Assembly (NCBI GenBank): GCA_965220085.1
Contig: CBDCOZ010000003.1
Coordinates: 1,963,667-2,027,666, forward strand
Length of the DNA stretch: 64,000 nt
Source of the DNA: Candidatus Oxydemutatoraceae bacterium
GTDB taxonomy: Bacteria; Pseudomonadota; Gammaproteobacteria; Poriferisulfidales; Oxydemutatoraceae
Direction of reading: 5' to 3'
Numbering within the stretch: position 1 is the first letter of the stretch; every line of letters begins with the position of its first letter. The notes under the pieces were generated by a model. It was not told the origin of the DNA, made no database searches, and saw nothing but the letters and a program-made list of their open reading frames with translations. Below, piece by piece: positions 6,016 to 31,440 of the stretch. A program made the position numbers and the translations under genes.

Positions 6016-8316
6016 TTGAAAAAGAAAGTCATCTCCAAAGCAACCGCCAAACGGTTACAAAAACCGCAGACACGACCGCCGGGCTCCGGGTTGCTCAAAC
6101 GCCTGCGCACCGCCATCGGCGCCATGCTGGTTGTCATCATCGCTTACCTGTTATTGGTATTGCTCGGCTACCACCCCGACGACCCGTCGTGGGCAAACAA
6201 TGTTCCTGCCGACCAAACCCGCAATCCCGGCGGCGTCATCGGCGCATGGATTGCATACACCTTGTATTTTTTCCTCGGCGGCCCGGCGCTTGTTTTGTTC
6301 CCGCTCGCCATCGGCCTGAGCGCGTGGCACTACTTTAAGCAGGAAGAGAGCGCCCCGTCCTTTCTCAACGAGCACCTGATCAACTGGCTGACATTTGTGC
6401 TGACGATCATCGCGTGTTGCGGGCTGGCATCGCTGCATTTTGTCGGCCACGAACTGCCATTGACGGCGGGCGGGCGGGTCGGCGAGGTGGCGGCGCGCAA
6501 TTTTGTCAGCGTATTCGGAATGGTCGGCTCCACGGTGCTATTGACCGGCCTTGCGGTCACCGGCTTCACCCTGATGACCGGCATTTCGTGGCTCAAAGTC
6601 ATGGATGCCATCGGCGCTTCGATATTCCGCCTGCTGGATTGGGGCAAAGAGCTGCGCGAACGCCGCGCCACGCAACTCGCCGCGGAAGACCGAGAGAAGA
6701 GAATCGTGCAAAGGAAGAAAAAGTTGTCTATTGATACGCCGCCGCGGATTGAACCGCAGGTCAAATCGGTCGGGCCGAGCAAACGCCAGCGGCGCGAGCG
6801 GCAGATCGGATTGCCCCAAGTGAAATCGTCCGATGAGTTGCCGGCGCTGAGTTTGCTGGATGCCTCGGCCGAAGAAGTCGCGGCGTATTCCGAAAAAGAG
6901 CTCAACCAAATGGCGAAGCAATTGGAGATCAAGTTGCAGGACTTCGGCATTGAAGCGGAGGTCACCGAAGCGCAGCCCGGCCCGATCATCACGCGCTTTG
7001 AATTGTTGCCGGCGCCCGGCACCAAAGCGTCCTCTATCAGCAATCTGGAGAAGGACCTGGCGCGCTCCATGTCGGTTCCGAGTCTGCGCGTCGTTGAAGT
7101 GATTCCGGGCAAATCGGTGGTCGGCATAGAAATTCCGAATCAGCGACCGTCCGTTGTGCGGCTGGGAGAAATTCTCGGTTCGCAAAAATACGACGAAGCC
7201 AAATCGCCTCTGACGCTCGCGCTCGGCAAAGGCATTACCGGCGAAGCGACGATGGTGAATCTGGAAAGCCTGCCCCATCTGCTGGCGGCGGGCACGACCG
7301 GGGCCGGCAAGTCGGTGGCGGTACATGTCATGCTGCTCAGTCTCTTGTTTAAGAATCTTCCCCGACAGGTGCGCCTGATTCTGATCGACCCCAAGATGCT
7401 GGAACTCAAAACCTACGAAAACATCCCCCACTTGCTGACGCCGGTGATTACCGATATGAACGAAGCAGCCGGCGTCCTGAACTGGGCGGTGGCCGAAATG
7501 GAACGGCGTTATCAATTGATGGCAAGCGTCGGCGCGCGCAATATCGGCGGGCTGAACCAGCGCATCGCCGAAGCGCAGAACCGCGGGCAGCCGCTGCGCG
7601 ACCCGTTGCTTGAGAATAGCGACGGCGAAGAGGGGGAAGCGAATGAGGCGCCGCTGCTGGAAGCGATGCCCTATATCGTCATCGTCATAGACGAGTTTGC
7701 GGACATGATGATGGTCGCCGGCAAAAAAGTCGAGGAACTGATTATCCGCCTGGCGCAAAAAGCCCGCGCCGCCGGCCTGCACCTGATTCTTGCGACCCAA
7801 CGGCCTTCCGTCGATATCATCACCGGTCTGGTCAAAGCAAACATTCCGGCGCGGATCGCTTTTCAGGTGTCGTCCAAAGTCGATTCGCGAACCATCCTGG
7901 ACCAAAACGGCGCCGAACAACTGCTCGGCAAAGGCGACATGTTATTCCTCGCCCCCGGCGGCGGCTTGCCGGAACGCATCCACGGCGCGTTTGTCAGCGA
8001 TCGGGAAGTCGCCAAGGTGACGGATTTTCTGCGCCGGACGGGAACGCCGCAATACGAAGACCTGCTCGCTGCGCCGACAGCCGGCGCGGGCGGCGCGGGC
8101 GGCGGACAAGGCGATGACCCGCTGTTTGACGAAGCCGTCGCCATCGTCACCGCATCCAACAAGGCCTCCATATCGCATCTGCAACGCCGCCTCAAGATCG
8201 GCTATAACCGCGCCGCCAGAATGATAGAGGACATGGAAGCCGCCGGCATTGTCAGCGCGGTGCAATCCAACGGCAGCCGCGAAGTGCTGGCGCCGCGCGA
8301 AGGTCGCGAATCATGA
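6016..8316 (+). CDS. ftsK: DNA translocase FtsK
   Basis: TTG start. Has N-terminal TM helices, a Pro/Gln-rich linker, Walker A GTTGAGKS and a C-terminal gamma winged-helix ([28 protein letters not shown]). Confidence 0.95.
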
Positions 8317-9125
8317 TGCGCCGCCTCAAGATCGGCTATAACCGCGCCGCCAGAATGATAGAGGACATGGAAGCCGCCGGCATTGTCAGCGCAGCGCAAT
8401 CCAACGGCAGCCGCGAAGCGCTGGCGCCGCGCGAAGGTCGCGAATCATGATGCGCCGCCTCAAGATCGGCTATAACCGCGCCGCCAAAATGACAGAGGAC
8501 ATGGAAGCCGCCGGCATTGTCAGCGCAGCGCAATCCAACGGCAGCCGCGAAGCGCTGGCGCCGCGCGAAGGTCGCGAATCATGATGCGCCGCCTCAAGAT
8601 CGGCTATAACCGCGCCGCCAAAATGACAGAGGACATGGAAGCCGCCGGCATTGTCAGCGCAGCGCAATCCAACGGCAGCCGCGAAGCGCTGGCGCCGCGC
8701 GAAGGTCGCGAATCATGATGCGCCGCCTCAAGATCGGCTATAACCGCGCCGCCAGAATGACAGAGGACATGGAAGCCGCCGGCATTGTCAGCGCAGCGCA
8801 ATCCAACGGCAGCCGCGAAGCGCTGGCGCCGCGCGAAGGTCGCGAATCATGATGCGCCGCCTCAAGATCGGCCATAACCGCGCCGCCAGAATGACAGAGG
8901 ACATGGAAGCCGCCGGCATTGTCAGCGCAGCGCAATCCAACGGCAGCCGCGAGGCGCTGGCGCCGCGCGAAGGTCGCGAATCATGATGCGCCGCCTCAAG
9001 ATCGGCTATAACCGCGCCGCCAGAATGACAGAGGACATGGAAGCCGCCGGCATTGTCAGCGCAGCGCAATCCAACGGCAACCGCGAAGCGCTGGCGCCGC
9101 GCGAAGGTCGCGAATCATGATGCGC
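8183..9125 (+). repeat. 134-bp tandem array of 7 copies: the ftsK 3' end plus the ATGA junction, with 6 extra copies before lolA
   Basis: ATGATGCGCCGCCTC recurs at 8313, 8447, 8581, 8715, 8849, 8983 and 9117 (period 134). The copies differ by a few point substitutions. Confidence 0.95.
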
Positions 9126-9731
9126 CGCCTCGGACTTTTGCTCTTGTGGCTGCCGTGTGTCGGCTCCGCCGGCGCACTCGACGACCTCTACCACTTTTTT
9201 CAGGCGACAACATTTGAGGCAGACTTTGCGCAGAAAGTCTATGACGATGAAGATCAATTGCTGGAGACTTCCCAAGGCTTTGTGCTGTTCCGCCGCCCGG
9301 GGCAATTCCGCTGGGAATACCGCGCGCCCGAAAGTTACATCATCACGACCGACGGCATCAATCTGCTCGTCTATGACCCGGCTTTGTCTCAGGCCTATGT
9401 TCGCCCGACGATGGAAGCGCTCGGCACCGCGCCTTTGCGCCTGCTGTTAGACCGCCGCCGGGTCTTTGATGATTTTGATTTGGAACCGGTTGCGCGCGCC
9501 GACAAACTGAAGTGGGTACGCTTGACTCCGAAAGTGGACGACACCGAATTCACGCATTTTGAAGTCGGCTTTGCCGGGCACGGGATCAGCCGCATGGCGT
9601 TGTTCGATCGCTTTGATCAACGCATAGACATACGCTTTGACAATGTGAAGATCAACCCGGCGATAGCGGCAAGCCGTTTCAAACTCCGGTTGCCGCCGGA
9701 CACCGATGTCATCGGCGACTACCTGCGCTGA
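9117..9731 (+). CDS. lolA: Outer-membrane lipoprotein carrier protein LolA
   Basis: Has a signal peptide [20 protein letters not shown] and LolA-like sequence throughout. Conserved ftsK–lolA synteny. Confidence 0.9.
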
Positions 9732-10455
9732 ACCGAACCGCTATGCGGCCGGCGAGCGGAACAGCTTGGAAACGGGATTGACGTTTTTCACTTCCATCTG
9801 ATCGACGCGCTTGCCGGCTTGCGTCAGGCCGTTAAACGACGGGCACACAAACAGGTTGCCATTCGCGGCAAGCCGTTTCAAACTCCGGTTGCCGCCGGAC
9901 ACCGATGTCATCGGCGACTACCTGCGCTGAACCGAACCGCTATGCGGCCGGCGAGCGGAACAGCTTGGAAACGGGATTGACGTTTTTCACTTCCATCTGA
10001 TCGACGCGCCTGCCGGCTTGCGCCAGGCCGTTAAACGACGGGCACACAAACAGGTTGCCATTCGCGGCAAGCCGGTTCAAACTCCGGTTGCCGCCGGACA
10101 CCGATGTCATCGGCGACTACCTGCGCTGAACCGAACCGCTATGCGGCCGGCGAGCGGAACAGCTTGGAAACGGGATTGACGTTTTTCACTTCAAACTGAT
10201 CGACGCGCCTGTCGGCTTGCGTCAGGCCGTTAAACGACGGGCACACAAACAGGTTGCCATTCGCGGCAAGCCGGTTCAAACTCCGGTTGCCGCCGGACAC
10301 CGATGTCATCGGCGACTACCTGCGCTGAACCGAACCGCTATGCGGCCGGCGAGCGGAACAGCTTGGAAACGGGATTGACGTTTTTCACTTCAAACTGATC
10401 GACGCGCCTGTCGGCTTGCGTCAGGCCGTTAAACGACGGGCACACAAACAGATTG
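9671..10455. repeat. ~180-bp tandem array of about 4.3 copies spanning the convergent 3' ends of lolA (+) and the nucleotidyltransferase gene (−)
   Basis: GCAAGCCGTTTCAAACTCCGG recurs at about 9671, 9871, 10051 and 10231. Each unit carries the lolA stop and the C-terminal codons of the minus-strand gene. Confidence 0.9.
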
Positions 10456-11054
10456 CCACTCACCGCGAGGCGCCGTTGTTCGCGGATTGAAAAGGCGGCC
10501 GCTTCCAGAAATGTCGCGACATCGCGGAAAAAATAGGTGCCGGCGGAAGCGTGTTCGGAAATCACGCGCTTTTCCGCCGTCGCGGTCACACGCCCGCGCG
10601 CGTCAATCGCAAGATAGCTGTAGCAGGCATCATCGGCGCGAAACCACGGAATCAAACCCGACGAATCGGCATCCGCCAACCAGACATCGATCTGCTCCGC
10701 GTCCGCATCGTAGATGATATCGGCGAGGTCTATGCACAGCGGCTCCTCCAAGCGCGCGCTGGCCGACACGCCGGCGACGGCGGAAAGCAGCGCCCCGCGC
10801 GTCGGGCTATTCAAATATGCCTTCTGCGCGCCGACAAAACAGCGGTCAAGAAAGCGGGCGATGGCAGCCGATTCGGGCACATCGGCGCGCAATACAAAAA
10901 TCAGGTCGGCGCTCGCCACAACGCCATCGCGCCACCATGGCCGCGATGTCAAAACCCGTTCTATCAGCGGCGTTCCGTCGACTTCCGACAAAGGCTTGAC
11001 GCAACCGTTTGCGCGAACGATATCGGCGCCGGCCAGAGGAACCACGCAGATCAT
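10338..11054 (-). CDS. Sugar-phosphate nucleotidyltransferase family protein (MobA-like NTP_transferase fold)
   Basis: MICVVPLAG…KPL…GTPLIERVL. The start was chosen at the ATGA overlap with the upstream gene's stop. Confidence 0.55.
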   Translation of the reverse strand: MICVVPLAGADIVRANGCVKPLSEVDGTPLIERVLTSRPWWRDGVVASADLIFVLRADVPESAAIARFLDRCFVGAQKAYLNSPTRGALLSAVAGVSASARLEEPLCIDLADIIYDADAEQIDVWLADADSSGLIPWFRADDACYSYLAIDARGRVTATAEKRVISEHASAGTYFFRDVATFLEAAAFSIREQRRLAVSGNLFVCPSFNGLTQADRRVDQFEVKNVNPVSKLFRSPAA

Positions 11055-12535
11055 TGCGACAGGAAATCGATGTGGCGCTTCAGGTCTTGCGGGGCGCCCA
11101 AACCGTGCATCGCGCTCGCCGGCACTTCGTACACGCCGATGTGACAACCGGCGGCAATCGCATGGTTGTAAACCGGGCAGACATAGAACTCGTTGTTGGT
11201 TCTGTCTTCTTTGACGATCATATCCATCGCCGCGGCGAAGAAGTCGCCGGCGGACATGAACAAATAAATGCCGACCGTCGCGAGATCGGAGATGGGTTGC
11301 TTTTCCCGCACTTGGGTAACCAAACCGTTGTCGCTGACACGGGCAAACGACCACTTGGGGTCGCGCGCTTCGTCGCGAAACACAAGAATGGAACCGTCCA
11401 ACTGCCGCTGTCGGCAATCGGCGACAAAAGCGTTTGCATCAAAGTCGACGATCTGGTCGCAGTTCGCCAACAACAATGGCGCGCGCCAATCTATTTTGCG
11501 ATGCGCGCACAACGCGGTGCAAGCGGCCCCCTGCGTCAGACCCGTGATCGGGACGAAGGATGCTTTCCATTTTTGCTCCAGCATATCGACCATATCGGGG
11601 TATGCTTGCAGGTGTTCGCTCTGCGCGATCAGGACGTTATGGCCGTCGGCGACCCGCAGATTATCCATCACCCGCTCGACCATCGTCATGCCTTTGACAT
11701 CTATAAAAGGCTTGGGTTCCTTGTAACCGGCATCGACAAAACGGCTGCCCGCGCCCGCCATCGGAATCAACACCGTCACCGGCAAATTGCCGACGCTCTC
11801 CTCGCGCTTCTGACGGGAAAAACGGCGGTTATACTCCTGCAACTTTTTCGGCGAATAAAAACTGTGGTAACAACTCGCCGGAATGCGATGGAAACCGACT
11901 TTCTTGCCGGCAATGATCAACTGGTTCAAAGAGGGCGCGATATAAAAAGACCCCTCGTGGGTGTCTTGCAGCATGATCATTTGCTTGCTGGCCGCGACGA
12001 AATCGCGCCCTTTGCGGAAATAATAAAACCCGGCGATGGCATCGCGGCTGATCACCCGCTTCTCCGCCGCTTCATTGACCGTCTCCGGCTCATCGCTGCG
12101 GATATAAGACCACCGCGGGTGCGTAGAGGAGAATGTAATCACCCCCGCATCCAGTCGCCGGCTTTCAAAACCGGCGATGATAGCGAGCAAATCCGCGTCG
12201 ATGATCTGGTCGCCGTTGACGATCAACAACGGCTCGTCGTTGTCTATGTGGTCGACCGCCATCATCACCGAGCACACCGCGCCCGCGGTCGGGTAACGCA
12301 ACCCGACGATGATCGGGTCCTCCGCGCACGACATTTTGATCGTCCGATCAAGGCTGAATTGTTCGCACTCCTCGTCGTTGACGATAAATATCCGGCGGCC
12401 CATAAGCGGCGCCAACCCTTTCAATACGGATTCGATCATCGGCGTATCGGTCACCTCGATCAAGGGCTTGGGAAAATGAAACTCGGCGCGAGGAAACAAC
12501 TCGCTGCCGCCGGCGATGGGGATGACGATATTCAT
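11051..12535 (-). CDS. Tandem two-domain nucleotidyltransferase (two NTP_transferase domains)
   Basis: Two copies of the I(P)IAG(G)…KPLI(E/D)V…G.PMIE motif: MNIVIPIAGG and TVLIPMAGAGSRF. Confidence 0.55.
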   Translation of the reverse strand: MNIVIPIAGGSELFPRAEFHFPKPLIEVTDTPMIESVLKGLAPLMGRRIFIVNDEECEQFSLDRTIKMSCAEDPIIVGLRYPTAGAVCSVMMAVDHIDNDEPLLIVNGDQIIDADLLAIIAGFESRRLDAGVITFSSTHPRWSYIRSDEPETVNEAAEKRVISRDAIAGFYYFRKGRDFVAASKQMIMLQDTHEGSFYIAPSLNQLIIAGKKVGFHRIPASCYHSFYSPKKLQEYNRRFSRQKREESVGNLPVTVLIPMAGAGSRFVDAGYKEPKPFIDVKGMTMVERVMDNLRVADGHNVLIAQSEHLQAYPDMVDMLEQKWKASFVPITGLTQGAACTALCAHRKIDWRAPLLLANCDQIVDFDANAFVADCRQRQLDGSILVFRDEARDPKWSFARVSDNGLVTQVREKQPISDLATVGIYLFMSAGDFFAAAMDMIVKEDRTNNEFYVCPVYNHAIAAGCHIGVYEVPASAMHGLGAPQDLKRHIDFLSQ

Positions 12536-13206
12536 CGCGCCTCCTGCGAACGGTTTTGTAGCGCGTTGATGCGGGAGCAAATATGCGGGTAAATCACATC
12601 GCGCACCCCCGCGACCTCCATCACATGGGCGCCGCTGGCGCGGGCGGCGGCGAGACCGCGCTCATTGTCCTCGATGATCAGGCACGCATCGGGCTTGAAA
12701 CCGAATCGCTTCATCGCCGTCAGATACATCTCCGGATCCGGTTTGGGCTTTTGCACATCCTCGTTGGAGAGATAAAAATCCGCATATTCCGTCAGGCCGG
12801 ACAACTCCAGCATCCGCGTCATGGAATCGCGCACCGAATTGGAACAGATCGCAATGCCATAGCCGTCCTGTTTGAGACGGGAAACGGCGTATTGAATGTG
12901 GAAGATCGGATAACATTTTGTCGCCACGATCTGTTGCGTATAACGTTGCTTCAAATCATTCAGAAACCCGTGCAAGGCGCGCGGCAAACCCCTGGTATCC
13001 GACAGCATCTCCAGTTTCTTGCGCGTCGGCAAACCGTCAAACGTCACGAGGTGGTCATCGCGGCTAATCTCCATCCCGAACAACGCCAGCGCTCGATTGA
13101 GCGCTTCGTAATGCCACTCGCGCGCATCGACCAGAACGCCGTCCATGTCAAACAGCACGGCTTTTATTTCAGACATCAAAAAACTCCTTCGCTTGTTGCG
13201 GAAAAT
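12532..13206 (-). CDS. HAD-superfamily hydrolase, subfamily IA
   Basis: Has VLFDMDGVLVD motif I and the downstream HAD motifs. The start was chosen at MSEIK. Confidence 0.75.
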   Translation of the reverse strand: MFRNKRRSFLMSEIKAVLFDMDGVLVDAREWHYEALNRALALFGMEISRDDHLVTFDGLPTRKKLEMLSDTRGLPRALHGFLNDLKQRYTQQIVATKCYPIFHIQYAVSRLKQDGYGIAICSNSVRDSMTRMLELSGLTEYADFYLSNEDVQKPKPDPEMYLTAMKRFGFKPDACLIIEDNERGLAAARASGAHVMEVAGVRDVIYPHICSRINALQNRSQEAR

Positions 13207-13807
13207 CGGTGCACAAAAGTATCGCGGCATGTATTTCTTCGCGCCATAGTTTCCAATTATCCCATACCCGCCGATGTTCGCGACCGTGCAACTCCGGCGA
13301 GACCAAAGCCACGCGCTTGCCGGCTTGCGCATGCGCGCGCAATGCGTCCGGCGTCGCCCAATCCGCGCACAAGGCATCCAGCCAAACTCCCGCCGCCGCG
13401 GCGTAAAAGGCGGGAGTCGGTTCGCAGTCGCTGTGACGGGTATAGACGGGCAGACCCGCATCCAAGTAATGACGCATATCGGGGACCGACATGTCAAAAA
13501 GGAAATAGGCGGCGGGGTCGATTCCCGCCATCGCTTGCGCCACCCGTTCGCACAAGCCGTCGGCTTTGACGTTGAGCGCCAACATTCCCGCTTGCCCGCG
13601 CTCTTTCCATAACGCCACGACATCGGCGAAGGGCAGCGCGGGGCCGACCGGCGCATCGTGGCTCACGACCAGACCGCCGCCGGCATCGCGGATATCGGTT
13701 TCAACGCCGACCCCGGCGGCAAACCCGCGCGCAAAAGCGCCGAGGGTGTTTTGCTCCGCCGCATCGTTCCACCACCCGCGGTGGCTTAGAATCTGAAAAT
13801 CTTTCAT
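13169..13807 (-). CDS. Glycerophosphodiester phosphodiesterase-like (GDPD) protein
   Basis: SHRG…E.D…H motif at the N-terminus. Confidence 0.55.
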   Translation of the reverse strand: MKDFQILSHRGWWNDAAEQNTLGAFARGFAAGVGVETDIRDAGGGLVVSHDAPVGPALPFADVVALWKERGQAGMLALNVKADGLCERVAQAMAGIDPAAYFLFDMSVPDMRHYLDAGLPVYTRHSDCEPTPAFYAAAAGVWLDALCADWATPDALRAHAQAGKRVALVSPELHGREHRRVWDNWKLWREEIHAAILLCTDFPQQAKEFFDV

Positions 13808-13827
13808 CGTCTGTCGGCTCTCTCTTT

Positions 13828-14295
13828 TTACAGTTTGTTAAGGAGTCTCTTTTTTTCCCGCTGCCAGTCGCGCTTGCGCGCATCGGCGCGCTTGTCGTAC
13901 GCGTGTTTGCCCTTGCCGATGCCAAGCTCCAACTTGGCGATATGGCGTTTCCAATAGAGCTTGATCGGCACCAGAGCATAACCTTTTCGCTCGAGCAGGC
14001 CGGTAAGCTTTGCGATCTCACGGCGGGTCAATAACAATTTGCGGGTGCGCGTCGGATCAACTTCGCGCGAAGAGGAGCACCCCGGCGGCGGGGTGATGTG
14101 GGAGCCGATCAGCCACGCTTCGTTGTCCTTGATCAGCGCATAACTCTCTTTGATATGCGCCCGATGATTGCGCAGCCCCTTGACTTCCCAGCCGCACAAA
14201 GCGAGGCCGGCTTCCAGTCGCTGCTCGATATAGTAATCGTGTGTCGCCCGCGCATTGCGGGCAATCAAACTGCCTGCGGTTTTATTATCTTTCAT
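13828..14295 (-). CDS. smpB: SsrA-binding protein
   Basis: Has ARNARATHDYYIEQ…EAGLALCGWEVK…DPTRTRKLLL and the C-terminal basic tail. Confidence 0.9.
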   Translation of the reverse strand: MKDNKTAGSLIARNARATHDYYIEQRLEAGLALCGWEVKGLRNHRAHIKESYALIKDNEAWLIGSHITPPPGCSSSREVDPTRTRKLLLTRREIAKLTGLLERKGYALVPIKLYWKRHIAKLELGIGKGKHAYDKRADARKRDWQREKKRLLNKL

Positions 14296-14369
14296 TATCC
14301 TGATATTATAGAAGCATTACAGCGCACCCAAGAACAAATACCGAATTAAAAACAAACACGGACAACATT

Positions 14370-15746
14370 ATGCTTGGAAACAATCAACAAGTGGCATATG
14401 GCAGAGGACAGTGGTCGTCGCGCCTCACTTTTATTCTGGCGGCGACCGGCTCGGCCGTCGGTCTCGGCAACATCTGGAAATTCCCGTATACGGCCGCCGA
14501 GAACGGCGGCAGTTCTTTCATACTGATTTACCTGGCTTGTATCTTTCTAATCGGGTTGCCGGTCTTGTGTTGCGAGGTGTTGCTCGGACGCCACGGCAAG
14601 CGCAACACGGTCAGCATATTCCGCCGCTTCCGCCGCGACTACGCGACGCCGCTCGGATGGAGCGTCATCGGCTGGCTCGGCATCGCCAGCGGCATCATCA
14701 TTTTGTCTTTCTACAGCGTCATCGCCGGCTGGGTCGCGGCGTATATATTTAAATCCGCCGCCGGCGCGTTTGACAACATGACCGCGGAAGCCATCGGCAA
14801 TATCTTCGGGGCGTTGCTGGAGAACCCCGAGCAACTGCTTCTATGGCATACCGCCTTCATGGTTTTGACCGCGACAACGCTGGCTCACGGCGTGCGCGAC
14901 GGCATAGAGCGGGTTGTCCGATACTTCATGCCGTTGCTGCTCGTCCTCTTAATCGGGCTGGTCACATACAACGCTTTCACCTGGGACATGCAAAGCACCC
15001 TCGCATTCATGTTCTCCTTTGAGCCCGACAAAATCACGGCGGGAGTCATTCTGCGCGCGCTCGGCATGGCGTTCTTTTCGCTGAGCCTCGGCATGGGAGC
15101 GATGATGATATACGGCTCGTACCTGCCGGGCAGCAAACCGATTCTCGGCACCGCATCGGCCATTGTCGTCGCCGATGTCACGGTGGCCTTGCTCGCGGGG
15201 TTTGCGATATTCCCGCTGCTATTTGCCTTTGATCTGAACCCGACCGAAGGCGGCGCCGGACTGATTTTCCAAACCCTGCCGCTGGCGATAGGGCAAATGC
15301 CGGGCGGGCATGTATTCGGTTTCCTGTTCTTCTTCCTGCTGTTGGTCGCGGCCTGGACTTCCGCCCTGTCCCTGCTGGAACCGTTTGTCGCCTGGTGCGT
15401 GGAACACCGCGGCTGGAACCGCTCTGCCGCCGCCATCGCGACCAGCGCGGCGGTATGGTCGCTCGGACTCCTGACCGTGCTCTCTTTTAACGAATGGGAA
15501 GAGGTCACGCTGTTTGACAAAACCATGTTTGGCCTGCTGGACTATGTGAGCAGCAACATCATGCTGCCGGTCGGCGGGTTTTTGATCGTGCTGTTCGCCG
15601 GCTGGGTATTGCCGGCTTCCGTCTTGCGCGATGAAATCGGATTGCGCAACAAGACGTGGCAGAAAATCTGGCAATTCATAGTGCGCTATCTGTGTCCGGT
15701 CGCTATCGTCATCATACTTGTCAATCTGTTGCGAACGGCGGGCTGA
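14370..15746 (+). CDS. Sodium-dependent transporter, NSS/SNF family
   Basis: Has the signature GLGNIWKFPY and 11–12 predicted TM helices. Confidence 0.85.
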   Translation: MLGNNQQVAYGRGQWSSRLTFILAATGSAVGLGNIWKFPYTAAENGGSSFILIYLACIFLIGLPVLCCEVLLGRHGKRNTVSIFRRFRRDYATPLGWSVIGWLGIASGIIILSFYSVIAGWVAAYIFKSAAGAFDNMTAEAIGNIFGALLENPEQLLLWHTAFMVLTATTLAHGVRDGIERVVRYFMPLLLVLLIGLVTYNAFTWDMQSTLAFMFSFEPDKITAGVILRALGMAFFSLSLGMGAMMIYGSYLPGSKPILGTASAIVVADVTVALLAGFAIFPLLFAFDLNPTEGGAGLIFQTLPLAIGQMPGGHVFGFLFFFLLLVAAWTSALSLLEPFVAWCVEHRGWNRSAAAIATSAAVWSLGLLTVLSFNEWEEVTLFDKTMFGLLDYVSSNIMLPVGGFLIVLFAGWVLPASVLRDEIGLRNKTWQKIWQFIVRYLCPVAIVIILVNLLRTAG

Positions 15747-15750
15747 TGCA

Positions 15751-16182: not shown

Positions 16183-16457
16183 ACACCGTCGAAGTCATCT
16201 ACGCCCAAGCGGATGCGCAGAAAAAAGTCACCCTGCGGCTTGAAGACGGCGCCACCGCCGAGGATGCCATCAAACGCTCCGGGCTGCTGACGCTGTTTCC
16301 GCAGATAGACTTGCGCCGCAATCAAGTCGGCATTTACGGACGGCCGGTCGCGCTGAACAAAGTCGTCCGCGCCGGCGACCGGGTGGAAATTTACCGCAGT
16401 CTGCACAAATCGCCCGTCGAACAGCGCCGCGAACGGGCGCGGAGCAGCGGGGCGTAA
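16179..16457 (+). CDS. ratB: RnfH/RatB family ubiquitin-like protein
   Basis: About 92 aa with a VEVIYA…GDRVEIYR pattern. Overlaps the ratA stop. Confidence 0.7.
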   Translation: MNTVEVIYAQADAQKKVTLRLEDGATAEDAIKRSGLLTLFPQIDLRRNQVGIYGRPVALNKVVRAGDRVEIYRSLHKSPVEQRRERARSSGA

Positions 16458-17252: not shown

Positions 17253-17260
17253 TAGCCGTC

Positions 17261-19047: not shown

Positions 19048-19049
19048 TT

Positions 19050-20037: not shown

Positions 20038-21876
20038 ATGCTTGCGACGACGGACACACAGCGGACATTAAAGGAACGTGTCAAAACACTGGGACACGAC
20101 CCGGGCGTGTACCGGATGCTGGATCGGCAAGGCACGATCATTTATGTCGGCAAGGCGCGCAATCTGAAAAAACGCGTCGGTTCGTACTTTAGCAAGAGCA
20201 AACTGAGTCCGAAGACGAAAGCGCTGATGGCGCAAACCCACGACATCGACTGCGTGATCACGCAGTCCGAAGTGGAAGCCTTGTTGCTTGAGAACAACCT
20301 GATAAAAAAGCACCGGCCGCGCTACAACGTATTCTTCCGCGACGACAAAAGCTACCCGTATATCCATATATCCGCCGACGAATTTCCGCGCGTGACCTTC
20401 TACCGCGGCAACCGCAAGAGCGCCGGTCGCTACTTCGGCCCCTACCCCAATGTGCTGGCGGTGCGTGAAACCTTGAACCTGTTGCAAAAATTATTCAAGT
20501 TGCGCCAGTGCAGAAATTCTTTTTTTAAAAACCGTTCGCGGCCCTGCCTTCAATATCAGATTAAACGTTGCGACGCCCCCTGTGTCGGCCTGACCGGCAC
20601 GGAGCATTACCGCGAACAGTTGTCACTTGCGGTCGAGTTGCTGTCCGGCAACAGCCGCAAGGTAATAGAAACCCTGATAAACAAAATGGAAACGGCGGCA
20701 AGCGATATGCAATACGAAGAAGCCGGCGCCCGCCGCGATCAAATCGCCCTGCTCAGAAAAGTATCCGAACAGCAATCGGTCAGCTCCGACGGCGGCGACA
20801 GCGACATTATCGCCTGCCGTTTTGAGGGGCGGTGTGCCTGCGTTCAGGTGTTCAATATCCGCGGCGGCTTAAACATCGGCAATAAAACTTTCTACCCGCA
20901 ACTGCCGGATAGCGATGTTGATGTCGGAATAATTCTGACAGCATTTACCGGACAATATTATCTGACCCACAAGCCGCCCGATGAGATTATCTTCAGCGAC
21001 AAACCGGCTGATGAGGCAACGCTGGCAGCGATGTTGAGTACAAAAGCGGGCAAAAATGTGAAGCTGACGAATACGCCGGCGGGCAAGAAGCGGCGCTGCC
21101 TGCTACTTGCAATCAAGAATACCGAAAACGCATTGAAAACACGCCTGACATCGCGCAAAGGGATACACGAACGATTGCAAAGCCTGCAAGAAGCGCTGGA
21201 TTTACCCGACCTGCCGCGACGCATTGAATGTTTTGATATCAGCCATACGATGGGCGAGAAAACAGTCGCCTCGTGTGTCGTGTTTGATCAGCAAGGTGCT
21301 AACAAACAGGAGTATCGCCGCTTTAACATCAGCGGGATCACGCCCGGCGATGATTGCGCCGCCATGCGTCAGGCGGTCACGCGCCGTTACCGGCGGCTCA
21401 AACGCGGCGAGGCAAAACTTCCCGATGTCCTGCTCATCGACGGCGGTAAAGCGCAAACCGGGGAAGCGAGGGCTGTTCTGAAAGAGTTGGAAATTGAAAA
21501 TGTTGAAGTGATCGGCGTAGCCAAGGGGGTAGAACGCAAGGCCGGTGAAGAGACACTGATTTGCGGGGATTTTGGCGAGACGATGAAACTGCCTCCCGAT
21601 TCTGCCGCCTTGCACCTGATTCAACAAATCCGCGATGAGGCACATCGCTTTGCCATCACCGGACACAAGCTGCGGCGGTCAAAGACGCGCAAAAGATCAA
21701 CGCTGGAAGATATTGCGGGCATCGGCCCGGGGCGGCGGCGCAACTTGCTTAAATACTTTGGCGGCGCGCAGGCGATTGAAGCGGCCGGCATAGACGAGAT
21801 CGGCAAAGTGCCGGGAATCAGCAAACGCATCGCCGGGCTGATTTACGAAGCGATGCACCGCAAGGAGACCGACTGA
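20038..21876 (+). CDS. uvrC: Excinuclease ABC subunit C
   Basis: GIY-YIG N-terminus (GVYRMLD…IIYVGKA), UvrBC domain, and C-terminal RNase H-like and HhH domains. Confidence 0.93.
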   Translation: MLATTDTQRTLKERVKTLGHDPGVYRMLDRQGTIIYVGKARNLKKRVGSYFSKSKLSPKTKALMAQTHDIDCVITQSEVEALLLENNLIKKHRPRYNVFFRDDKSYPYIHISADEFPRVTFYRGNRKSAGRYFGPYPNVLAVRETLNLLQKLFKLRQCRNSFFKNRSRPCLQYQIKRCDAPCVGLTGTEHYREQLSLAVELLSGNSRKVIETLINKMETAASDMQYEEAGARRDQIALLRKVSEQQSVSSDGGDSDIIACRFEGRCACVQVFNIRGGLNIGNKTFYPQLPDSDVDVGIILTAFTGQYYLTHKPPDEIIFSDKPADEATLAAMLSTKAGKNVKLTNTPAGKKRRCLLLAIKNTENALKTRLTSRKGIHERLQSLQEALDLPDLPRRIECFDISHTMGEKTVASCVVFDQQGANKQEYRRFNISGITPGDDCAAMRQAVTRRYRRLKRGEAKLPDVLLIDGGKAQTGEARAVLKELEIENVEVIGVAKGVERKAGEETLICGDFGETMKLPPDSAALHLIQQIRDEAHRFAITGHKLRRSKTRKRSTLEDIAGIGPGRRRNLLKYFGGAQAIEAAGIDEIGKVPGISKRIAGLIYEAMHRKETD

Positions 21877-24402: not shown

Positions 24403-25335
24403 ATGTCTGCCGATGCGGCCACAATACCGCAATCAACCGATAATGAGGCTGTCGCAGTCTCATCCACCTCGCTGATTGCATTGGCACACGCCGCGCGCGG
24501 GCTCTCGCTAAACCCCAAACAGATCCGCGCGCGCACCAGCGATACGATGCAATCCCGCTTCAAGGGTCGCGGCATGGAATATGACGAGTCGCGCCCTTAT
24601 CAACCGGGTGATGATGTGCGCCATCTGGATTGGCGCGTGACAGCGAGAAGCAATGCGACCTATACGAAAACATTTCAGGAAGAACGCGAACGACCGGTGT
24701 TCTTGTGGGTGGATAACCGCGGGCCGATGTTCTTTGCAACACGCGGCAAATTCAAATCGGTTGTTGCGGCGGAAATAGCGGCGCTGCTGGGTTGGAGCGC
24801 CACACACCGCGGCGATCGCGTCGGCGGCGCGGTATTTTTCGGTGAAGAACACCACGAGGTAAAGCCCATGCGCGGGCGACGCGGCATCCTGCGCTTGCTC
24901 CATTACCTGTCGCAACCGCCCCTTGACGGGATCAGTGACACAGCACTCGGCATACCGCTGAACAGAATGTCGCGCATCGCCCGCCCCGGCAGTCTGGTTA
25001 TCCTGATCAGCGACTTTCGCCAGTGCGATGAGCGGGCACAGACTAATCTGCGGCGCCTTGCGGCGCACAGCGAGTTGGTTATGCTTCAGGTGTATGACAC
25101 GCTCGAACAAGAACTGCCGCCGCCGGGGGATTATCGGGTCAGCGACGGGCGCAACGAGGTGCGGTTTGCTTCGCGCGATAGCGCCTTGCGCAAAACCTAT
25201 CGCGATGCGTTTGCGCAGCGCACGCAACTGACGATGAGTCTGGCAAAGAAACTGCGTTCTGCGTATCTTCGCTGTCGCACAAGCGATAATCCTCTGACCG
25301 TGTTGAAAGGAACGTTTGGAGCCCGCAGCCGATGA
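24403..25335 (+). CDS. DUF58 domain protein
   Basis: Partner of MoxR in Bat operons, with a VWA-like fold signature. Confidence 0.8.
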   Translation: MSADAATIPQSTDNEAVAVSSTSLIALAHAARGLSLNPKQIRARTSDTMQSRFKGRGMEYDESRPYQPGDDVRHLDWRVTARSNATYTKTFQEERERPVFLWVDNRGPMFFATRGKFKSVVAAEIAALLGWSATHRGDRVGGAVFFGEEHHEVKPMRGRRGILRLLHYLSQPPLDGISDTALGIPLNRMSRIARPGSLVILISDFRQCDERAQTNLRRLAAHSELVMLQVYDTLEQELPPPGDYRVSDGRNEVRFASRDSALRKTYRDAFAQRTQLTMSLAKKLRSAYLRCRTSDNPLTVLKGTFGARSR

Positions 25336-25791
25336 ACCCGGAAGCGATCGGCGAACTCCTTGCGCAACTGACGATGAGTCTGGCAAAGAAACTGCGTTCT
25401 GCTTATCTTCGGTGTCGCACAAGCGATAATCCTCTGACCGTGTTGAAAGGAACGTTTGGAGCCCGCAGCCGATGAACCCGGAAGCGATCGGCGAACTCCT
25501 TGCGCAACTGACGATGAGTCTGGCAAAGAAACTGCGTTCTGCTTATCTTCGGTGTCGCACAAGCGATAATCCTCTGACCGTGTTGAAAGGAACGTTTGGA
25601 GCCCGCAGCCGATGAACCCGGAAGCGATCGGCGAACTCCTTGCGCAACTGACGATGAGTCTGGCAAAGAAACTGCGTCCTGCTTATCTTCGGTGTCGCAC
25701 AAGCGATAATCCTCTGACCGTGTTGAAAGGAACGTTTGGAGCCCGCAGCCGATGAACCCGGAAGCGATTGGCGAACTCCTTGCGCAACTGC
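25221..25791 (+). repeat. 140-bp tandem array of 4 copies: the DUF58 3' end plus the DUF4381 5' end
   Basis: GCCCGCAGCCGATGAACCCG recurs at 25321, 25461, 25601 and 25741. Confidence 0.95.
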
Positions 25792-26267
25792 GCGATATTC
25801 GCTTGCCCGAACCTCCCGGTTGGTGGCCGCCGGCGCCCGGTTGGTGGATCCTGGCAGCGATACTGGCAGCGTCGATTGCGGGCGGTATCTGGCGGCGGCG
25901 GCAACACATCGCGCATATCAATTCGCCGCGCTATCTGGCGCTTGAGCAACTTGATATATTGCGCGCGCGCTATCGCGCGGACCATGATGCGCAGCGCTTG
26001 CTGGCAGACATCTCCGCTCTGATGCGGCGCGTCGCGCTGAGCATCGGGCCGCGACGGGAAGTCGCCTCGCTGACCGGCGAACAGTGGCTTGATTGGATTA
26101 ACAGACATACGAGCGGCGCGCCGCTTGATGAAAACATTGCGCGGACTCTGATCGATGCGCCGTATCGCCCGACGGCGCAAAGCGATGCCGAGGCGATACT
26201 GCGGGCGTGCGAAGAATGGGCCGAAGGGCTTGAGAGCAAGCGGGGGCAAAGCGATGCTGCACTTTGA
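25752..26267 (+). CDS. DUF4381 domain protein
   Basis: N-terminal LPEPPGWWPPAPGWW plus a TM helix. Confidence 0.7.
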   Translation: MNPEAIGELLAQLRDIRLPEPPGWWPPAPGWWILAAILAASIAGGIWRRRQHIAHINSPRYLALEQLDILRARYRADHDAQRLLADISALMRRVALSIGPRREVASLTGEQWLDWINRHTSGAPLDENIARTLIDAPYRPTAQSDAEAILRACEEWAEGLESKRGQSDAAL

Positions 26268-27243: not shown

Positions 27244-29030
27244 GCGATTTTCATTTTTTGCGGCCGTGGTGGTTTGTCGCCATCGTGCCGCTGGCTGTCG
27301 CGCTCTGGTTGCTCGCTAAGATGCAGTCGGGAGAGAAGAGTTGGGAGACGATCTGCGACCGCCACCTGCTGCCGCACATCCTGATCGGGCGCGATACGAC
27401 GAGCAGCAAAAAATTTATGCTCGCGCTTGCCGCCGCGATCGGCGCGGTATCCATTCTCGCCCTTGCCGGGCCCGCTGCGGAAAAACAACAGCAGCAGGTG
27501 TTTGAAAACGAATCCGCTCTGGTCGTCGTGTTTGACCTGTCGCGCTCGATGAATGCGGTGGACATACCGCCGAGCCGTCTGGTGCGCGCGCGGTATAAGA
27601 TCAGCGACCTGATCAATCGTTACCAAAGCGGCGGGCAGTTTGCGCTGGTGACGTATGCCGCCGATGCGTTTACTGTCATGCCGCTTACCGACGACACCGC
27701 GGCATTTGAAATGTACTTGTCGTCCCTGAATAGCGGTATGCTGCCGGAACAAGGCAGCCGCCCCGATCTGGCGCTGGAACATTCCGCCGCGCTGGTCGAG
27801 CAGGCCGGCTTGGAGCGGGGAGACATACTGCTGGTCAGCGATTATGTCGACAGCGACCGCAGTCACGCCATGGCCAAGGACCTGGCGCAGCGGGGATACC
27901 GCATTTCGGTACTCGGCGTCGGCAGCAAAGAAGGCGCGCCGATTCGGGTGAACGGCAACATCTTCACCCACAACGGCAAGACCGTCGTCGCGCATTTTGA
28001 TGCGGCGCCTTTGCGCGAACTTGCCAAGCTCGGCAACGGCATCTACAGGCAGTTAGACCCCACCGGCGAGAGCGATATCGCCGCGCTCAACGAGTTGTTT
28101 GAGTCCGCGCCGAAATTGCCGGCGGAAGACGGCTCATCGCAGGTGTTCGGCGAGGCCTGGAAAGAACAGGGGCCGTGGTTGGTGTTGCTGTTATTGCCGT
28201 TGGCGGCTCTCGGTTTCAGGCGCGGGCTCTTAGTCGCCGCGCTTGCTATCACGCTCCCTCTGCCACAACCGGCGACGGCCAACTGGTGGGATGATCTGTG
28301 GCAGCGCGGCGACCAGCAAGCGATGGAAGCATTTGAAAAGGGCGACACCGAGACCGCCGCCGAACTGTTTGATGACCCGAGGTGGCGGGCGGCGAGCAGT
28401 TTTCGCAGCGGCAATTATCGGCAGGCGCAACAGGCGCTTGAGAAACCGCAGAGCGCCGGCGACTGGTATAACCTTGGCAATGCGCAAGCGCACGGGGGTA
28501 ATTTTGAGGGGGCGATCAAATCGTACAAGCGCTCTATTGAGCTTGACCCTGCGATGGAAGATGCGCAACACAACATGGGCATCGTCAGACAGTTGTTGCA
28601 AGAGCAACAGGCGCAAGCCGGCGAAGGCGATGAGGAGGACGCCGAAGGAGAAGAAGCGGAAGGACAACAGGGCGAAGCCGAACAACAAGACGGTTCCGAG
28701 GCGGAACAGGCGGGGCAGGCGGACAGCTCCGGCGATGAAAACGATCCGGATGATGCTTCCGAGCAAGAAGCCGGCAAAGAGGAGCAAGAGCAGGCCGACT
28801 CCGGCGCGCAAGGAAACGAGGAGCAGGAACAGTCCGCCGCCGACGAGCAAGACGATGAGGAAGCGCAAACCGGCGCTAACGAGGGAGAGACGATGCCCGA
28901 GGACAAGCAGGCGATAGAACAGTGGTTGCGTCAGGTTGAGGACAATCCGTCGCGGATGTTGCAACGCAAGTTTCGTTATCAGCAGAGAAAGGAAAACAAA
29001 AATACCGAGGAGGGGGAAAACCCATGGTGA
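27231..29030 (+). CDS. batB: VWA plus TPR protein BatB, with a long acidic low-complexity tail
   Basis: DLSRSM MIDAS motif and TPR helices (DWYNLGNAQAHGGNFEGAIKSYKRSIELDP). Confidence 0.85.
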   Translation: MEFLSDFHFLRPWWFVAIVPLAVALWLLAKMQSGEKSWETICDRHLLPHILIGRDTTSSKKFMLALAAAIGAVSILALAGPAAEKQQQQVFENESALVVVFDLSRSMNAVDIPPSRLVRARYKISDLINRYQSGGQFALVTYAADAFTVMPLTDDTAAFEMYLSSLNSGMLPEQGSRPDLALEHSAALVEQAGLERGDILLVSDYVDSDRSHAMAKDLAQRGYRISVLGVGSKEGAPIRVNGNIFTHNGKTVVAHFDAAPLRELAKLGNGIYRQLDPTGESDIAALNELFESAPKLPAEDGSSQVFGEAWKEQGPWLVLLLLPLAALGFRRGLLVAALAITLPLPQPATANWWDDLWQRGDQQAMEAFEKGDTETAAELFDDPRWRAASSFRSGNYRQAQQALEKPQSAGDWYNLGNAQAHGGNFEGAIKSYKRSIELDPAMEDAQHNMGIVRQLLQEQQAQAGEGDEEDAEGEEAEGQQGEAEQQDGSEAEQAGQADSSGDENDPDDASEQEAGKEEQEQADSGAQGNEEQEQSAADEQDDEEAQTGANEGETMPEDKQAIEQWLRQVEDNPSRMLQRKFRYQQRKENKNTEEGENPW

Positions 29031-30694
29031 TGAGAGTTGCCCAAGCGGTCTTGATCGGCATATCGCTGCTCGCGGTCACGGCGATGGCGGCGGATGTGCG
29101 CACGGTCGTCAAACGCAACCAGATTGAGATCGGCGAATCGTTTCAGGTGGAATTCGTAAGCAACAAGAAAGACACGGGCGCGCCGGATTTTTCGCCGCTT
29201 AACAAAGACTTCCGGGTGTTGGGGAGGAATCAAAAATCCACGCAAAGCATCATCAACGGGGTCGTGAAAATAGAGAAGAAGTGGATCGTGGAGTTATCGC
29301 CCAAGCGCGCCGGGCGGCTGAAAATTCCGGCATTGAACTTTGGCAATGCGAAGAGCCGGGAAGCGTTTGTGCGGGTGAAAAAAGCAAAACCTGCGGCGCC
29401 CGGCAAGGCGGAGGACATCTTTATGGAGATGACAGCGCAACCCTTGTCGCCTTATGTGCAGGCGCAGGTTCTGGTCATTACGCGCCTGTATACGATCAAG
29501 AGCCTGCGCGGGTCGATCAGCGATATTGCGGCGGAAAGCGATGCCATCATAAAGAAGGTCGGCGATGCGAAGAACTACAGGAAGGCGCATCGCGGACGCA
29601 ACTACAACATACACGAAAACCGCTACTTCGTTTATCCGCAAAACAGCGGCGCTGTCAAGATCAAGCCGCCGCAACTGGACGCGCAGTACACCGAGCGGGG
29701 GCGGCGTTATACGGTGCGCAAATCGGCCGCGCCGGTGACCCTCAATGTGCGCCCGGCGCCCGCTTCTTTTACCGGCGTTGCGTGGCTGCCCGCCGAAAGG
29801 ATACGGCTGTCCGAAACGTGGTCGGAAGATTTGGCGTCCCTGCAGGCGGGCGCGCCGCTTGTGCGCACGATAGCCATCAAAGGGCGCGGCATTTCAAGCG
29901 CGCAGTTGCCGGAAATCAAACAGGATGAGGTCGATAATCTCCGGCTCTATCCCGAGCAGGCGACGCTCAAAGACAATACGGGGAATACGCTGGACTCGGA
30001 ACGCATCCAAAAGTTTGTGTTGATTCCGTCTCAGGCGGGGCAGTACAGGCTGCCGGAGATTCGCATCCCGTGGTGGAATACCAAAACCGATAAGACCGAA
30101 TATGCCACCTTGCCGGCGCGGACTCTGTCGGTTGAGGAAGCGGCGGCGGGGTTGATTATCACGCCCGAACCGGTTGTCGCATCGCAGCAAGCAGCGCCCG
30201 TCGGCGATAGCGACGACAGCAATCTGTGGGCGTGGGTCAGCGCTTTGATGTTGCTCGGGTGGAGCGCGACCGGCGCGCTGGTATGGAAACAGCGGGGCAT
30301 CGTCGCGGCTCATGCGGCTGCTGCGACCGATAACCGGCGCAAAGAGGAGAAGCAGGCGGCGAACTTGCGGCGCTGTCGCAGGCAGTTGGAAAAAGCATGC
30401 GCGAACGACGACCGCCTGGCAACCAGAAATACCATGTTGCGCTGGGCCAAACTGATGTGGCCCGACAGGGATACGAAGTCTCTCGGGCAGTTGGCGCTGT
30501 TGGCCGATGATGCCGCGCTGGTCGAAGAGATCAGGCGATTGGATGAGGCGCTTTATTCCGAGCACAGCGATTGGAGCGGCAAGGAGATGTGGACGGCGTT
30601 GCAAGCCTGCTCCGAAACCGCGAAGGAACGACCCGCCGGTCGGTTTGCCAGAAAAAAATCCGGCGGGCTGGCGGCGTTGCACAAACTGAAGTGA
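29024..30694 (+). CDS. batD: BatD family protein
   Basis: Signal peptide and C-terminal TM helix. Position in the operon. Confidence 0.75.
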   Translation: MVMRVAQAVLIGISLLAVTAMAADVRTVVKRNQIEIGESFQVEFVSNKKDTGAPDFSPLNKDFRVLGRNQKSTQSIINGVVKIEKKWIVELSPKRAGRLKIPALNFGNAKSREAFVRVKKAKPAAPGKAEDIFMEMTAQPLSPYVQAQVLVITRLYTIKSLRGSISDIAAESDAIIKKVGDAKNYRKAHRGRNYNIHENRYFVYPQNSGAVKIKPPQLDAQYTERGRRYTVRKSAAPVTLNVRPAPASFTGVAWLPAERIRLSETWSEDLASLQAGAPLVRTIAIKGRGISSAQLPEIKQDEVDNLRLYPEQATLKDNTGNTLDSERIQKFVLIPSQAGQYRLPEIRIPWWNTKTDKTEYATLPARTLSVEEAAAGLIITPEPVVASQQAAPVGDSDDSNLWAWVSALMLLGWSATGALVWKQRGIVAAHAAAATDNRRKEEKQAANLRRCRRQLEKACANDDRLATRNTMLRWAKLMWPDRDTKSLGQLALLADDAALVEEIRRLDEALYSEHSDWSGKEMWTALQACSETAKERPAGRFARKKSGGLAALHKLK

Positions 30695-31440
30695 ACCGCC
30701 TTATGCGAACCGCCGACCTGTTAATCCATGCGCACCGAGTCCTGCCGATTAATCCGGCAAACACGGTGTTGAATGCCCACAGCGTGGCGGTAAGCGCCGG
30801 CAGGATTGCCGCCGTGATGCCGAGCGCTGATGCGCGTCGCAACTGGCTGGCGGCGTTGCACAAACTGAAGCGAACCGCCTTATGCGAACCGCCGACCTGT
30901 TAATCCATGCGCACCGAGCCCTGCCGATCCGCCCGGCAAACACGGTGTTGAATGCCCACAGCGTAGCGGTGCGCGATGGCCGGATTGCCGCCGTGATGCC
31001 GAGCGCCGATGCGCGTCGCAACTGGCTGGCGGCGTTGCGCAAACTGAAGCGAACCGCCTTATGCGAACCGCCGACCTGTTAATCCATGCGCACCGAGTCC
31101 TGCCGATCCGCCCGGCAAACACGGTGTTGAATGCCCACAGCGTAGCGGTGCGCGATGGCCGGATTGCTGCTGTGATGCCGAGCGCTGACGCGCGCCGCAA
31201 CTGGCTGGCGGCGTTGCGCAAACTGAAGCGAACCGCCTTATGCAAACCGCCGACCTGTTAATCCATGCGCACCGAGTCCTGCCGATCCGCCCGGCAAACA
31301 CGGTGTTGAATGCCCACAGCGTAGCGGTGCGCGATGGCCGGATTGCCGCTGTGATGCCGCCCGCTGACGCGCGCCGCAACTGGCGGCGTTGCACAAACTG
31401 AAGCGAACCGCCTTATGCGAACCGCCGACCTGTTAATCCA
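30666..31440 (+). repeat. 179-bp tandem array of about 5 copies: the batD 3' end plus the first ~150 nt of mtaD
   Basis: ATGCGAACCGCCGACCTG recurs at 30703, 30882, 31061, 31240 and 31415. The last spacing is 175. Confidence 0.95.

Follow-up and report, generated by a model that had tools for sequence, protein, structure and literature searches.

We examined a 64,000-nt window (55% GC) of a small uncultured gammaproteobacterial genome (contig CBDCOZ010000003.1), in which the junctions between neighboring genes are occupied by long tandem arrays. Arrays were detected by use of Tandem Repeats Finder (TRF), with long-period arrays of high identity (≥90%) counted, and gene identities were assigned from Pfam (FtsK, LolA, RnfH, Maf, MoxR, DUF58, DUF4381, BatA/B/D, an MtaD-like amidohydrolase and a PLD-family protein). 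By this approach, seven long-period arrays with units of 61 to 199 bp were found, together with a nested 541-bp duplication. Three of the seven lie at junctions of co-directional genes (ftsK→lolA, DUF58→DUF4381 and batD→mtaD), three at convergent junctions (lolA with a minus-strand open reading frame (ORF), rnfH/maf and mtaD/PLD) and one in an intergenic region; no gene is broken by any of them. The three co-directional arrays had been singled out by an original prediction made from the letters of the window, and their coordinates and Pfam gene identities agree with the junctions it named.

Array A1 spans positions 8185-9131 (+ strand) at the ftsK→lolA junction and consists of seven 134-bp units plus 9 nt (7.1 copies by TRF). 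Each unit combines the final 129 nt of ftsK upstream of the ATGA overlap of the two genes, a segment encoding part of the gamma domain, with 6 nt from the start of lolA (ATGATG), of which one base also belongs to the ftsK stop codon (8314-8316). The arrangement is m-X-m, where m is the 9-nt exact match CGCCGCCTC, read as CGC CGC CTC (Arg-Arg-Leu) in both ftsK and lolA. Six mini-ORFs of 45 amino acids (aa) result (8313-8450, 8447-8584, 8581-8718, 8715-8852, 8849-8986 and 8983-9120). The ftsK gene (6016-8316, +; 766 aa; Pfam FtsK_4TM, FtsK_alpha, FtsK_SpoIIIE and FtsK_gamma) is intact through the first copy, and lolA (9117-9731, +; 204 aa; Pfam LolA) is intact from the last copy, its 3' end lying within a further array (A2, see below).

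Array A3 (25223-25790, +) is of similar construction, with four 140-bp units plus 8 nt (4.1 copies by TRF) at the DUF58→DUF4381 junction. Its unit is formed by the last ~110 nt of the DUF58 gene and the first 31 nt of the DUF4381 gene, which again overlap as ATGA, and the array is flanked by the 8-nt exact match CGCAACTG, read as xCG CAA CTG in both genes. The DUF58 gene (24403-25335, +; 310 aa; Pfam DUF58) is intact through copy 1 and the DUF4381 gene (25752-26267, +; 171 aa; Pfam DUF4381) from the last copy, with three mini-ORFs of 47 aa between them (25332-25475, 25472-25615 and 25612-25755). Every mini-ORF of A1 and A3 ends in the TGA of the ATGA that opens the next copy. Thus, the internal copies of both arrays are complete ORFs because the gene pairs overlap as ATGA and because the units are two nucleotides longer than a multiple of three (2 mod 3). 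In hypothetical units of either array shifted by +1 or -1 frame, a stop would be met 45-108 nt before the next ATG, and most of the unit would be left untranslated.

The third co-directional array, A4 (30666-31564, +), lies at the batD→mtaD junction and contains about five 179-bp units, the last of which is 175 bp. The unit joins the last 29 nt of batD (including its stop) to the initial 142 nt of mtaD across an 8-nt spacer, with ATG codons at 30703, 30882, 31061, 31240 and 31415. The unit-to-unit junction reads ...CGCAACT|GGCTGGCGGCG..., i.e., AACT|GGCTGGCG, and was formed between GGCTGGCG of batD and GGCGGGCG of mtaD, an imperfect match (7 of 8 positions, 3 nt exact) that is in phase. The 8-mer GAACCGCC was rejected as the A4 endpoint, as it is internal to the unit, where it occurs twice, 14 nt apart (TGAACCGCCTTATGCGAACCGCC), and does not stand at the unit boundary. 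Of the 8-9-bp endpoint microhomologies originally proposed, CGCCGCCTC and CGCAACTG are exact but GAACCGCC does not apply. Copy 1 of A4 alone keeps the batD TGA stop, the codon being CGA in the copies that follow, and hence the other mini-ORFs, of 66 aa, run 22 nt beyond the next ATG. In the last unit, a CTGG deletion near 31378 puts the reading out of phase and yields an ORF of 53 aa with its stop 13 nt short of the mtaD ATG. The earlier claim that every copy is an intact ORF thus describes the internal copies of A1 and A3 but not the last unit of A4; that a start codon is present in every copy is true, but follows automatically for any unit that spans a co-directional junction.

In a more distant genome that also bears arrays (locus L087, see below), BatD ends at the same place, which mildly favors TGA over CGA as a possible ancestral codon. 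The batD gene itself (29024-30694, +; 556 aa) matches Pfam BatD and DUF7939. The mtaD-like amidohydrolase gene (31415-32730, +), which has arrays at both of its ends, is split into two ORFs (31415-32362 and 32278-32730) that match positions 1-243 and 245-344, respectively, of the Pfam Amidohydro_1 profile. The frameshift lies at a G-run near 32305 (32300-32312, GCGGGGGGTG) and may reflect an error in sequencing the homopolymer, or else the gene may really be a pseudogene. The 45-66-aa peptides encoded by the co-directional arrays look like by-products, since the differences between A1 copies are mostly nonsynonymous substitutions and since the A1 peptide (FtsK residues 724-766, about two-thirds of the gamma domain) is an FtsK fragment without the first helix of that domain.

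The convergent arrays are likewise built from the ends of their flanking genes. Array A2 (9666-10461; 9666-10458 by TRF) contains four 199-bp units, in each of which 66 nt from the 3' end of lolA are joined by a 9-nt spacer to 124 nt from the 3' end of an ORF on the minus strand (10338-11417). The C-terminus of this ORF is conserved in the sister species (L090). No exact microhomology (0 nt) is present at the A2 junction. The rnfH/maf array (16448-16795; Pfam Ub-RnfH and Maf) has two 170-bp units plus 8 nt and the microhomology CGGsGCGT, 8 nt with one mismatch. At the convergent junction of mtaD with the PLD gene (33272-34684, -; Pfam PLDc_2), the nested array A5 (32457-33300) has 103-bp units (72 nt of the mtaD 3' end and 31 nt of the PLD 3' end; 3.4 copies at 32657-33010 by TRF) inside a 541-bp higher-order duplication (32457-32748 and 32998-33289). 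The intergenic array (894-1407) consists of 8.4 copies of a 61-bp unit, with no gene ending inside it, between a convergently oriented coiled-coil gene (34-804, +) and methyltransferase gene (1505-2179, -). An ORF running through this array (813-1526, -) was not accepted as a gene, as it has no Pfam match and is built of non-triplet repeats. Over all the arrays, junction microhomology ranged from 9 nt exact, through 8 exact, 8 with one mismatch and an imperfect 7 of 8, to 0. No sequence is common to the units of the seven arrays, each being derived from its own flanking genes, and the copies within an array are 93-99% identical and carry structured single-nucleotide polymorphisms (SNPs).

Each flanking gene is intact, the upstream gene by way of the first copy and the other gene from the last copy, as is expected of a tandem duplication that has one endpoint in each of two genes. 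None of the seven junction or intergenic periods (61, 134, 199, 170, 140, 179 and 103 bp) is divisible by three, whereas each of the 23 intragenic periods, found within the coiled-coil genes, is. A 65-nt direct repeat at 3322-3425 was set aside as a junction array, since it lies in an upstream non-coding region and just 39 of the 65 nt are repeated. The two copies of this 39-nt element (CGTGACACGGCACAnCATTTGCCCCTGTGTCCGATA; - strand, 65 nt apart) are upstream of an ORF ending at 2268 and could be a duplicated operator or promoter element.

A more distant genome (1.94 Mb, 64% GC), in which DUF58 is 68% identical over half of its length and UvrC is 59% identical, was found to carry two further co-directional arrays. 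At its DUF58→DUF4381 junction (L087), an independent 329-bp duplication with an ATGA overlap is in phase and yields a 110-aa mini-ORF (11116-11448). At its fabH→uvrC junction (L093), a 209-bp duplication (9739-10168) was formed at GGyCGGCGC, which is read in different phases in the two genes (GG TCG GCG C in fabH and GGC CGG CGC in uvrC). The resulting 70-aa mini-ORF (9792-10004) reads past the out-of-frame fabH stop and ends on the TGA within the ATGA at the true uvrC start.

Other repeats are present at these two loci. A 189-bp unit occurs twice at 9587-9971 of L087, in the 500-bp spacer between moxR and DUF58 and within an ORF of 147 aa whose end is 18 nt upstream of the DUF58 start; this unit resembles an insertion inside DUF58 (75% identity). 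Two repeat-bearing proteins are also encoded by L087 (1-870 and 5878-7047), one a giant of more than 10,000 aa (318-bp repeats) and the other a coiled-coil protein (repeats of 66, 99 and 198 bp). Just downstream of the fabH/uvrC duplication of L093 is a type II CRISPR-Cas locus (13530-20636; Cas9-like, Cas1) with ~30 repeats of 66-bp period.

The original prediction held that the endpoint microhomologies stand in the same codon phase in both genes, that chance would produce this only about one time in three, and that either selection or a duplication mechanism coupled to coding phase was indicated. A shared phase was confirmed for A1, A3 and the A4 junction but does not extend to fabH→uvrC of L093. 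The chance level of one-third did not hold: among maximal exact 8-9-nt matches between the genes of the window, the codon phase was shared in 52%, and in 46% when 3' ends were compared to 5' ends. With the chance level at ~0.5, three of three in phase is not significant (p ~0.10-0.14). The GC content of the coding sequences of the window at codon positions 1, 2 and 3 is 0.60, 0.46 and 0.68, respectively.

A frame pattern was detected instead in the unit lengths. All five co-directional arrays have units of 2 mod 3 (134, 140, 179, 329 and 209 bp), and in four of the five (A1, A3, L087 and L093; not A4) the mini-ORF terminates within the ATGA that holds the following start. By contrast, the convergent and intergenic unit lengths (61, 199, 170, 103 and 541 bp) are 1, 1, 2, 1 and 1 mod 3. 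A junction-specific null was constructed from microhomology pairs (k ≥ 6-8) spanning the 25 further co-directional junctions in the window; of the pairs, 41-44% gave 2 mod 3, and 22-26% were relay-competent, defined as a mini-ORF end at -25 to +4 nt relative to the next start. Compared to this null, five of five at 2 mod 3 has p ~0.012-0.016 and at least four of five relay-competent has p ~0.013, both post hoc and with n = 5. Because the co-directional arrays obey the frame pattern and the convergent and intergenic arrays show no constraint, selection on translation at co-directional junctions is favored, as in one half of the earlier alternative; for the other half, there was no sign of a phase-coupled duplication mechanism at the arrays examined. 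The earlier reading is thus partly supported, in a modified form in which the frame rule would be set by the next start codon and not by the codon phase of the microhomology.

Evidence that the arrays are real was obtained from an independent Illumina run (ERR14375724). A Logan contig from this run (L001) matches 2,011 bp of the window at 100% identity and ends at 25252, i.e., at the start of A3 plus 29. If the novel A3 unit-to-unit junction exists, a Logan graph, which uses k=31, must branch at exactly this position, and the end of the contig therefore supports the junction. The arrays were also found to be unusually dense. Seven arrays in 64 kb were compared to four in a background set of 1.44 Mb, comprising 80 ftsK loci of other gammaproteobacteria (FtsK ~50% identity, among the matches listed), and this corresponds to a ~40-fold higher density. 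None of the four background arrays lies between co-directional coding sequences; they were rejected as comparable cases, being tRNA/terminator or repetitive extragenic palindrome (REP)-like intergenic repeats. If the window is typical, ~110 arrays per Mb are extrapolated for the genome (source contig, 2,046,636 bp), and the organism-wide style of the original prediction is likewise an extrapolation from the window.

The ftsK-lolA, lolA-downstream and DUF58-DUF4381 junctions were compared to those of relatives. The sister species (Logan; L082, L083 and L090; ~80-93% nt identity) has single-copy contiguous junctions, and array-free junctions were also found in two Tara relatives (L084, ~77% nt identity; L088, LolA 72% aa identity) and in a distant relative (L089, LolA 57% aa identity). 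The microhomologies are likewise missing: in the sister species, ftsK and lolA read CGGCGGCTC vs. CGTCACCGA, and DUF58 and DUF4381 read ACACAATTG vs. GAGCAGTTG. The arrays are thus recent, as close relatives have neither the arrays nor the microhomologies, and the latter absence implies that the 8-9-nt identities arose by chance in this lineage, with duplication and amplification following. Exact look-ups with LolA and with the mini-ORFs of A1 and A3 returned nothing on record, a metagenome contig scan with LolA returned no relative, and a literature search turned up no specific prior description of junction-spanning arrays. Between lolA and smpB of the window, ~3.4 kb (10400-13800) is occupied by ORFs without Pfam match. 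smpB directly follows lolA in L088 and L089, L090 has at least the first ORF of this segment, and the segment looks like an insertion.

Taken together, the observed arrays, their junctions and recency, the intact flanking genes and the frame pattern are best explained, with a probability of roughly 0.6, by microhomology-mediated duplication and amplification, filtered by gene integrity and by continuous translation. The lineage would form tandem duplications of ~60-540 bp at an unusually high rate, or retain them unusually well. Replication slippage or template switching between microhomologies present by chance (0-9 nt) may create the duplications, and further slippage or unequal exchange may then amplify them. 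A first filter would act on gene integrity, since endpoints in two genes or in a spacer leave both genes whole; such a filter would explain why the arrays lie on junctions of every orientation and why the intragenic periods are divisible by three. A second filter would act where co-directional genes share one transcript, the unit length having to bring the stop of each mini-ORF at (ATGA) or near the next start. Ribosomes could then be passed from copy to copy by termination-reinitiation, such that the array stays translated, and this relay would preserve translational coupling and avoid polarity on the downstream gene. A broader statement, which we offer tentatively and at somewhat less than even odds, is that this lineage (two related small genomes so far) is subject to runaway, locus-specific minisatellites, of which the co-directional arrays survive only with ribosome-relaying ORFs, as a self-made, non-mobile counterpart of MIRUs (mycobacterial interspersed repetitive units).

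Several points weigh against the proposed explanation by filtered duplication. Co-transcription of the gene pairs and their dependence on coupling are presumed. Shine-Dalgarno-like AAGG/GGAG motifs are located 11-12 nt upstream of the lolA and DUF4381 starts. A4 has no ATGA, overruns the next start by 22 nt and has a frame-shifted last unit, and is at most a loose relay. The pattern was drawn from five arrays of two genomes, with the mod-3 rule formulated after the data were seen, and the null relies on longest-ORF starts and on junctions of the window only. Codon-periodic microhomology alone predicts ~50% in phase. In addition, no cause of the elevated duplication rate was identified in the 64 kb.

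The principal alternative is neutral survivorship, in which gene-sparing duplications are simply kept, the shared phase comes from codon periodicity and there is no selection on translation of the array. We regard this as unlikely, yet as deserving serious consideration, for the in-phase rate of 46-52% of 8-9-nt matches leaves three of three at p ~0.1, arrays occur equally at convergent and intergenic sites, one out-of-phase unit has persisted in A4, and the A1 copies differ by mostly nonsynonymous substitutions. What such survivorship does not accommodate is fabH→uvrC of L093, where the duplication is out of phase with fabH, and so cannot be explained by codon periodicity, and nevertheless has a unit of 2 mod 3 and ends on ATGA. 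It is also at odds with the five of five at 2 mod 3 against a null of 0.41-0.44 (p ~0.01-0.02) and with the lack of any such preference in the arrays that are not co-directional. A different source of selection would be function of the repeats themselves, with copy number tuning the downstream gene as in a contingency locus or with useful peptides being made, e.g., free FtsK gamma fragments. An intact ORF and start codon in every copy, an A1 peptide spanning about two-thirds of the gamma domain, and a poly-C tract at a gene start in the same genome, in the style of a contingency locus, would suit this possibility. We judge it improbable, as close relatives are without arrays, the units come from unrelated genes, the peptide changes between copies are mostly nonsynonymous, the gamma fragment is without its first helix, and convergent and intergenic arrays cannot act in this manner.

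A dedicated repeat-forming activity, such as a specialized polymerase or recombinase that is possibly coupled to transcription or translation, as suspected for the Borgs, would account for the extreme and lineage-restricted density (~40-fold above background, in two related small genomes), and Borgs provide a precedent for genome-specific tandem-repeat formation (PMC9879509). This explanation appears quite improbable: no candidate repeat-forming enzyme was found among the genes of the window, the junctions are heterogeneous (0-9 nt) with no motif common to the units, and the copies are distinguished by SNPs, whereas the A-rich repeats of Borgs are perfect. Least probable of all is an assembly or library artefact, i.e., spurious tandem expansion in a long-read metagenome assembly. 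The contig names of the relatives suggest HiFi metagenome assemblies and the G-run frameshift of mtaD could be a homopolymer error, but the SNPs between copies are structured, an independent short-read contig breaks at exactly the array start plus 29, and intact flanking genes with constrained frames are not expected of random artefacts.

If microhomology-mediated duplication filtered in this way is correct and the frame rule holds genome-wide, the genome would contain dozens to hundreds of independent natural insertions between genes, recording which spacer geometries are tolerated in operons. Selection in favor of termination-reinitiation coupling and against polarity, for which reporters otherwise have to be applied to one gene at a time, could then be read out directly by counting, and a natural experiment would be available on the strength of coupling and polarity constraints on operon spacers. 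As a bacterial counterpart to Borgs, the lineage could also be used to ask what determines the birth rate of tandem repeats. On the practical side, the arrays give rise to series of spurious small ORFs and interrupt short-read assemblies where genes adjoin, and annotation and binning of such genomes are affected.

Other features of the window were noted. A C18-T-C5 tract (5321-5344, -) lies just after the ATG at 5356 of a 566-aa ORF (3656-5356, -; MLILPPPPPPSP...), and looks like either a phase-variable contingency tract or a hard-to-sequence homopolymer. This ORF belongs to a paralogous family without Pfam matches that has at least six ORFs (57417-63988 and 3656-5356, -), five of them in tandem, with conserved 3' and intergenic segments of 75-94% nt identity. 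Two short perfect arrays lie between two of the paralogues, one with a 22-bp unit (3.6 copies, 58382-58460) and one with a 14-bp unit (4.9 copies, 58467-58534). The coiled-coil proteins (34-804 and 54557-57345; weak CCDC90-like/DUF1640 match) have in-frame repeats with periods of 27-216 bp, all divisible by three, and the two coiled-coil genes at 54.6-57.3 kb are the product of a tandem gene duplication (1,384 bp, 82% identity). An island with low GC content at third codon positions (0.31-0.51; 36092-41665) encodes an AlwI-family restriction endonuclease, a fusion of RadC-JAB with a Dam-type N6-adenine methyltransferase, and a DUF5655 protein, and is probably a horizontally acquired restriction-modification module.

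The arrays were compared to four known systems. Microhomology-mediated tandem duplications (MTDs) of 55-92 bp form at 5-8-bp GC-rich microhomologies, with long GC-rich ones far more duplication-prone and with frame-shifting events depleted from genes (PMC8639346). The head-to-tail arrangement m-X-m-X-m of MTDs is fit exactly by A1, A3 and the rnfH/maf array, the units copy local gene ends, and the ancestral single-copy state is seen in L082, L083, L084, L088 and L090. By contrast to MTDs, A4 has just 3 nt of exact match and A2 has none; furthermore, MTDs are usually subclonal, two-copy and rapidly reverting, whereas the arrays here are fixed, have 4-8 copies and are ~40-fold denser. Likeness to Borgs, the extrachromosomal elements of Methanoperedens, is found in the genome-specific, recent and locus-unique nature of the repeats, in the partial flanking repeats and in intragenic units divisible by three. 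In Borgs, the units are short and perfect, are rich in A and are located in ORFs or spacers (PMC9879509), whereas the units described here are 61-199 bp, GC-rich, carry SNPs and typically span two genes, and the host is a bacterium with a ~2-Mb chromosome.

The closest parallels to the frame pattern are translational. Termination-reinitiation coupling requires overlaps or very short distances (PMC6728339, PMC10666635), and the units of A1, A3, L087 and L093 each reproduce an ATGA stop-start overlap, a configuration (ATGA/TGATG) for which coupled translation of adjacent genes has been demonstrated in these studies. Known cases couple two real genes, whereas a chain of up to six by-product ORFs is predicted here. 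The variable-number tandem repeats composed of MIRUs (MIRU-VNTRs) are tandem 40-100-bp repeats between co-directional operon genes, in which the ORF of the unit overlaps the next start (-4 nt, ATGA); translation of this internal ORF and of the downstream gene (-4 nt) is presumed to be coupled, such that insertion of the element would be nearly neutral, with minimal effect on expression (PMC12548453, a review). An ORF per unit with a 4-nt overlap with the next start is found in A1, A3, L087 (11116-11448) and L093 (9792-10004), and not in A4. MIRUs are one dispersed consensus family and apparently mobile, whereas the arrays here are locally built and the same process also yields convergent and intergenic arrays. 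Thus, the arrays are not MIRUs, as each is made from its own flanking genes with no shared consensus.

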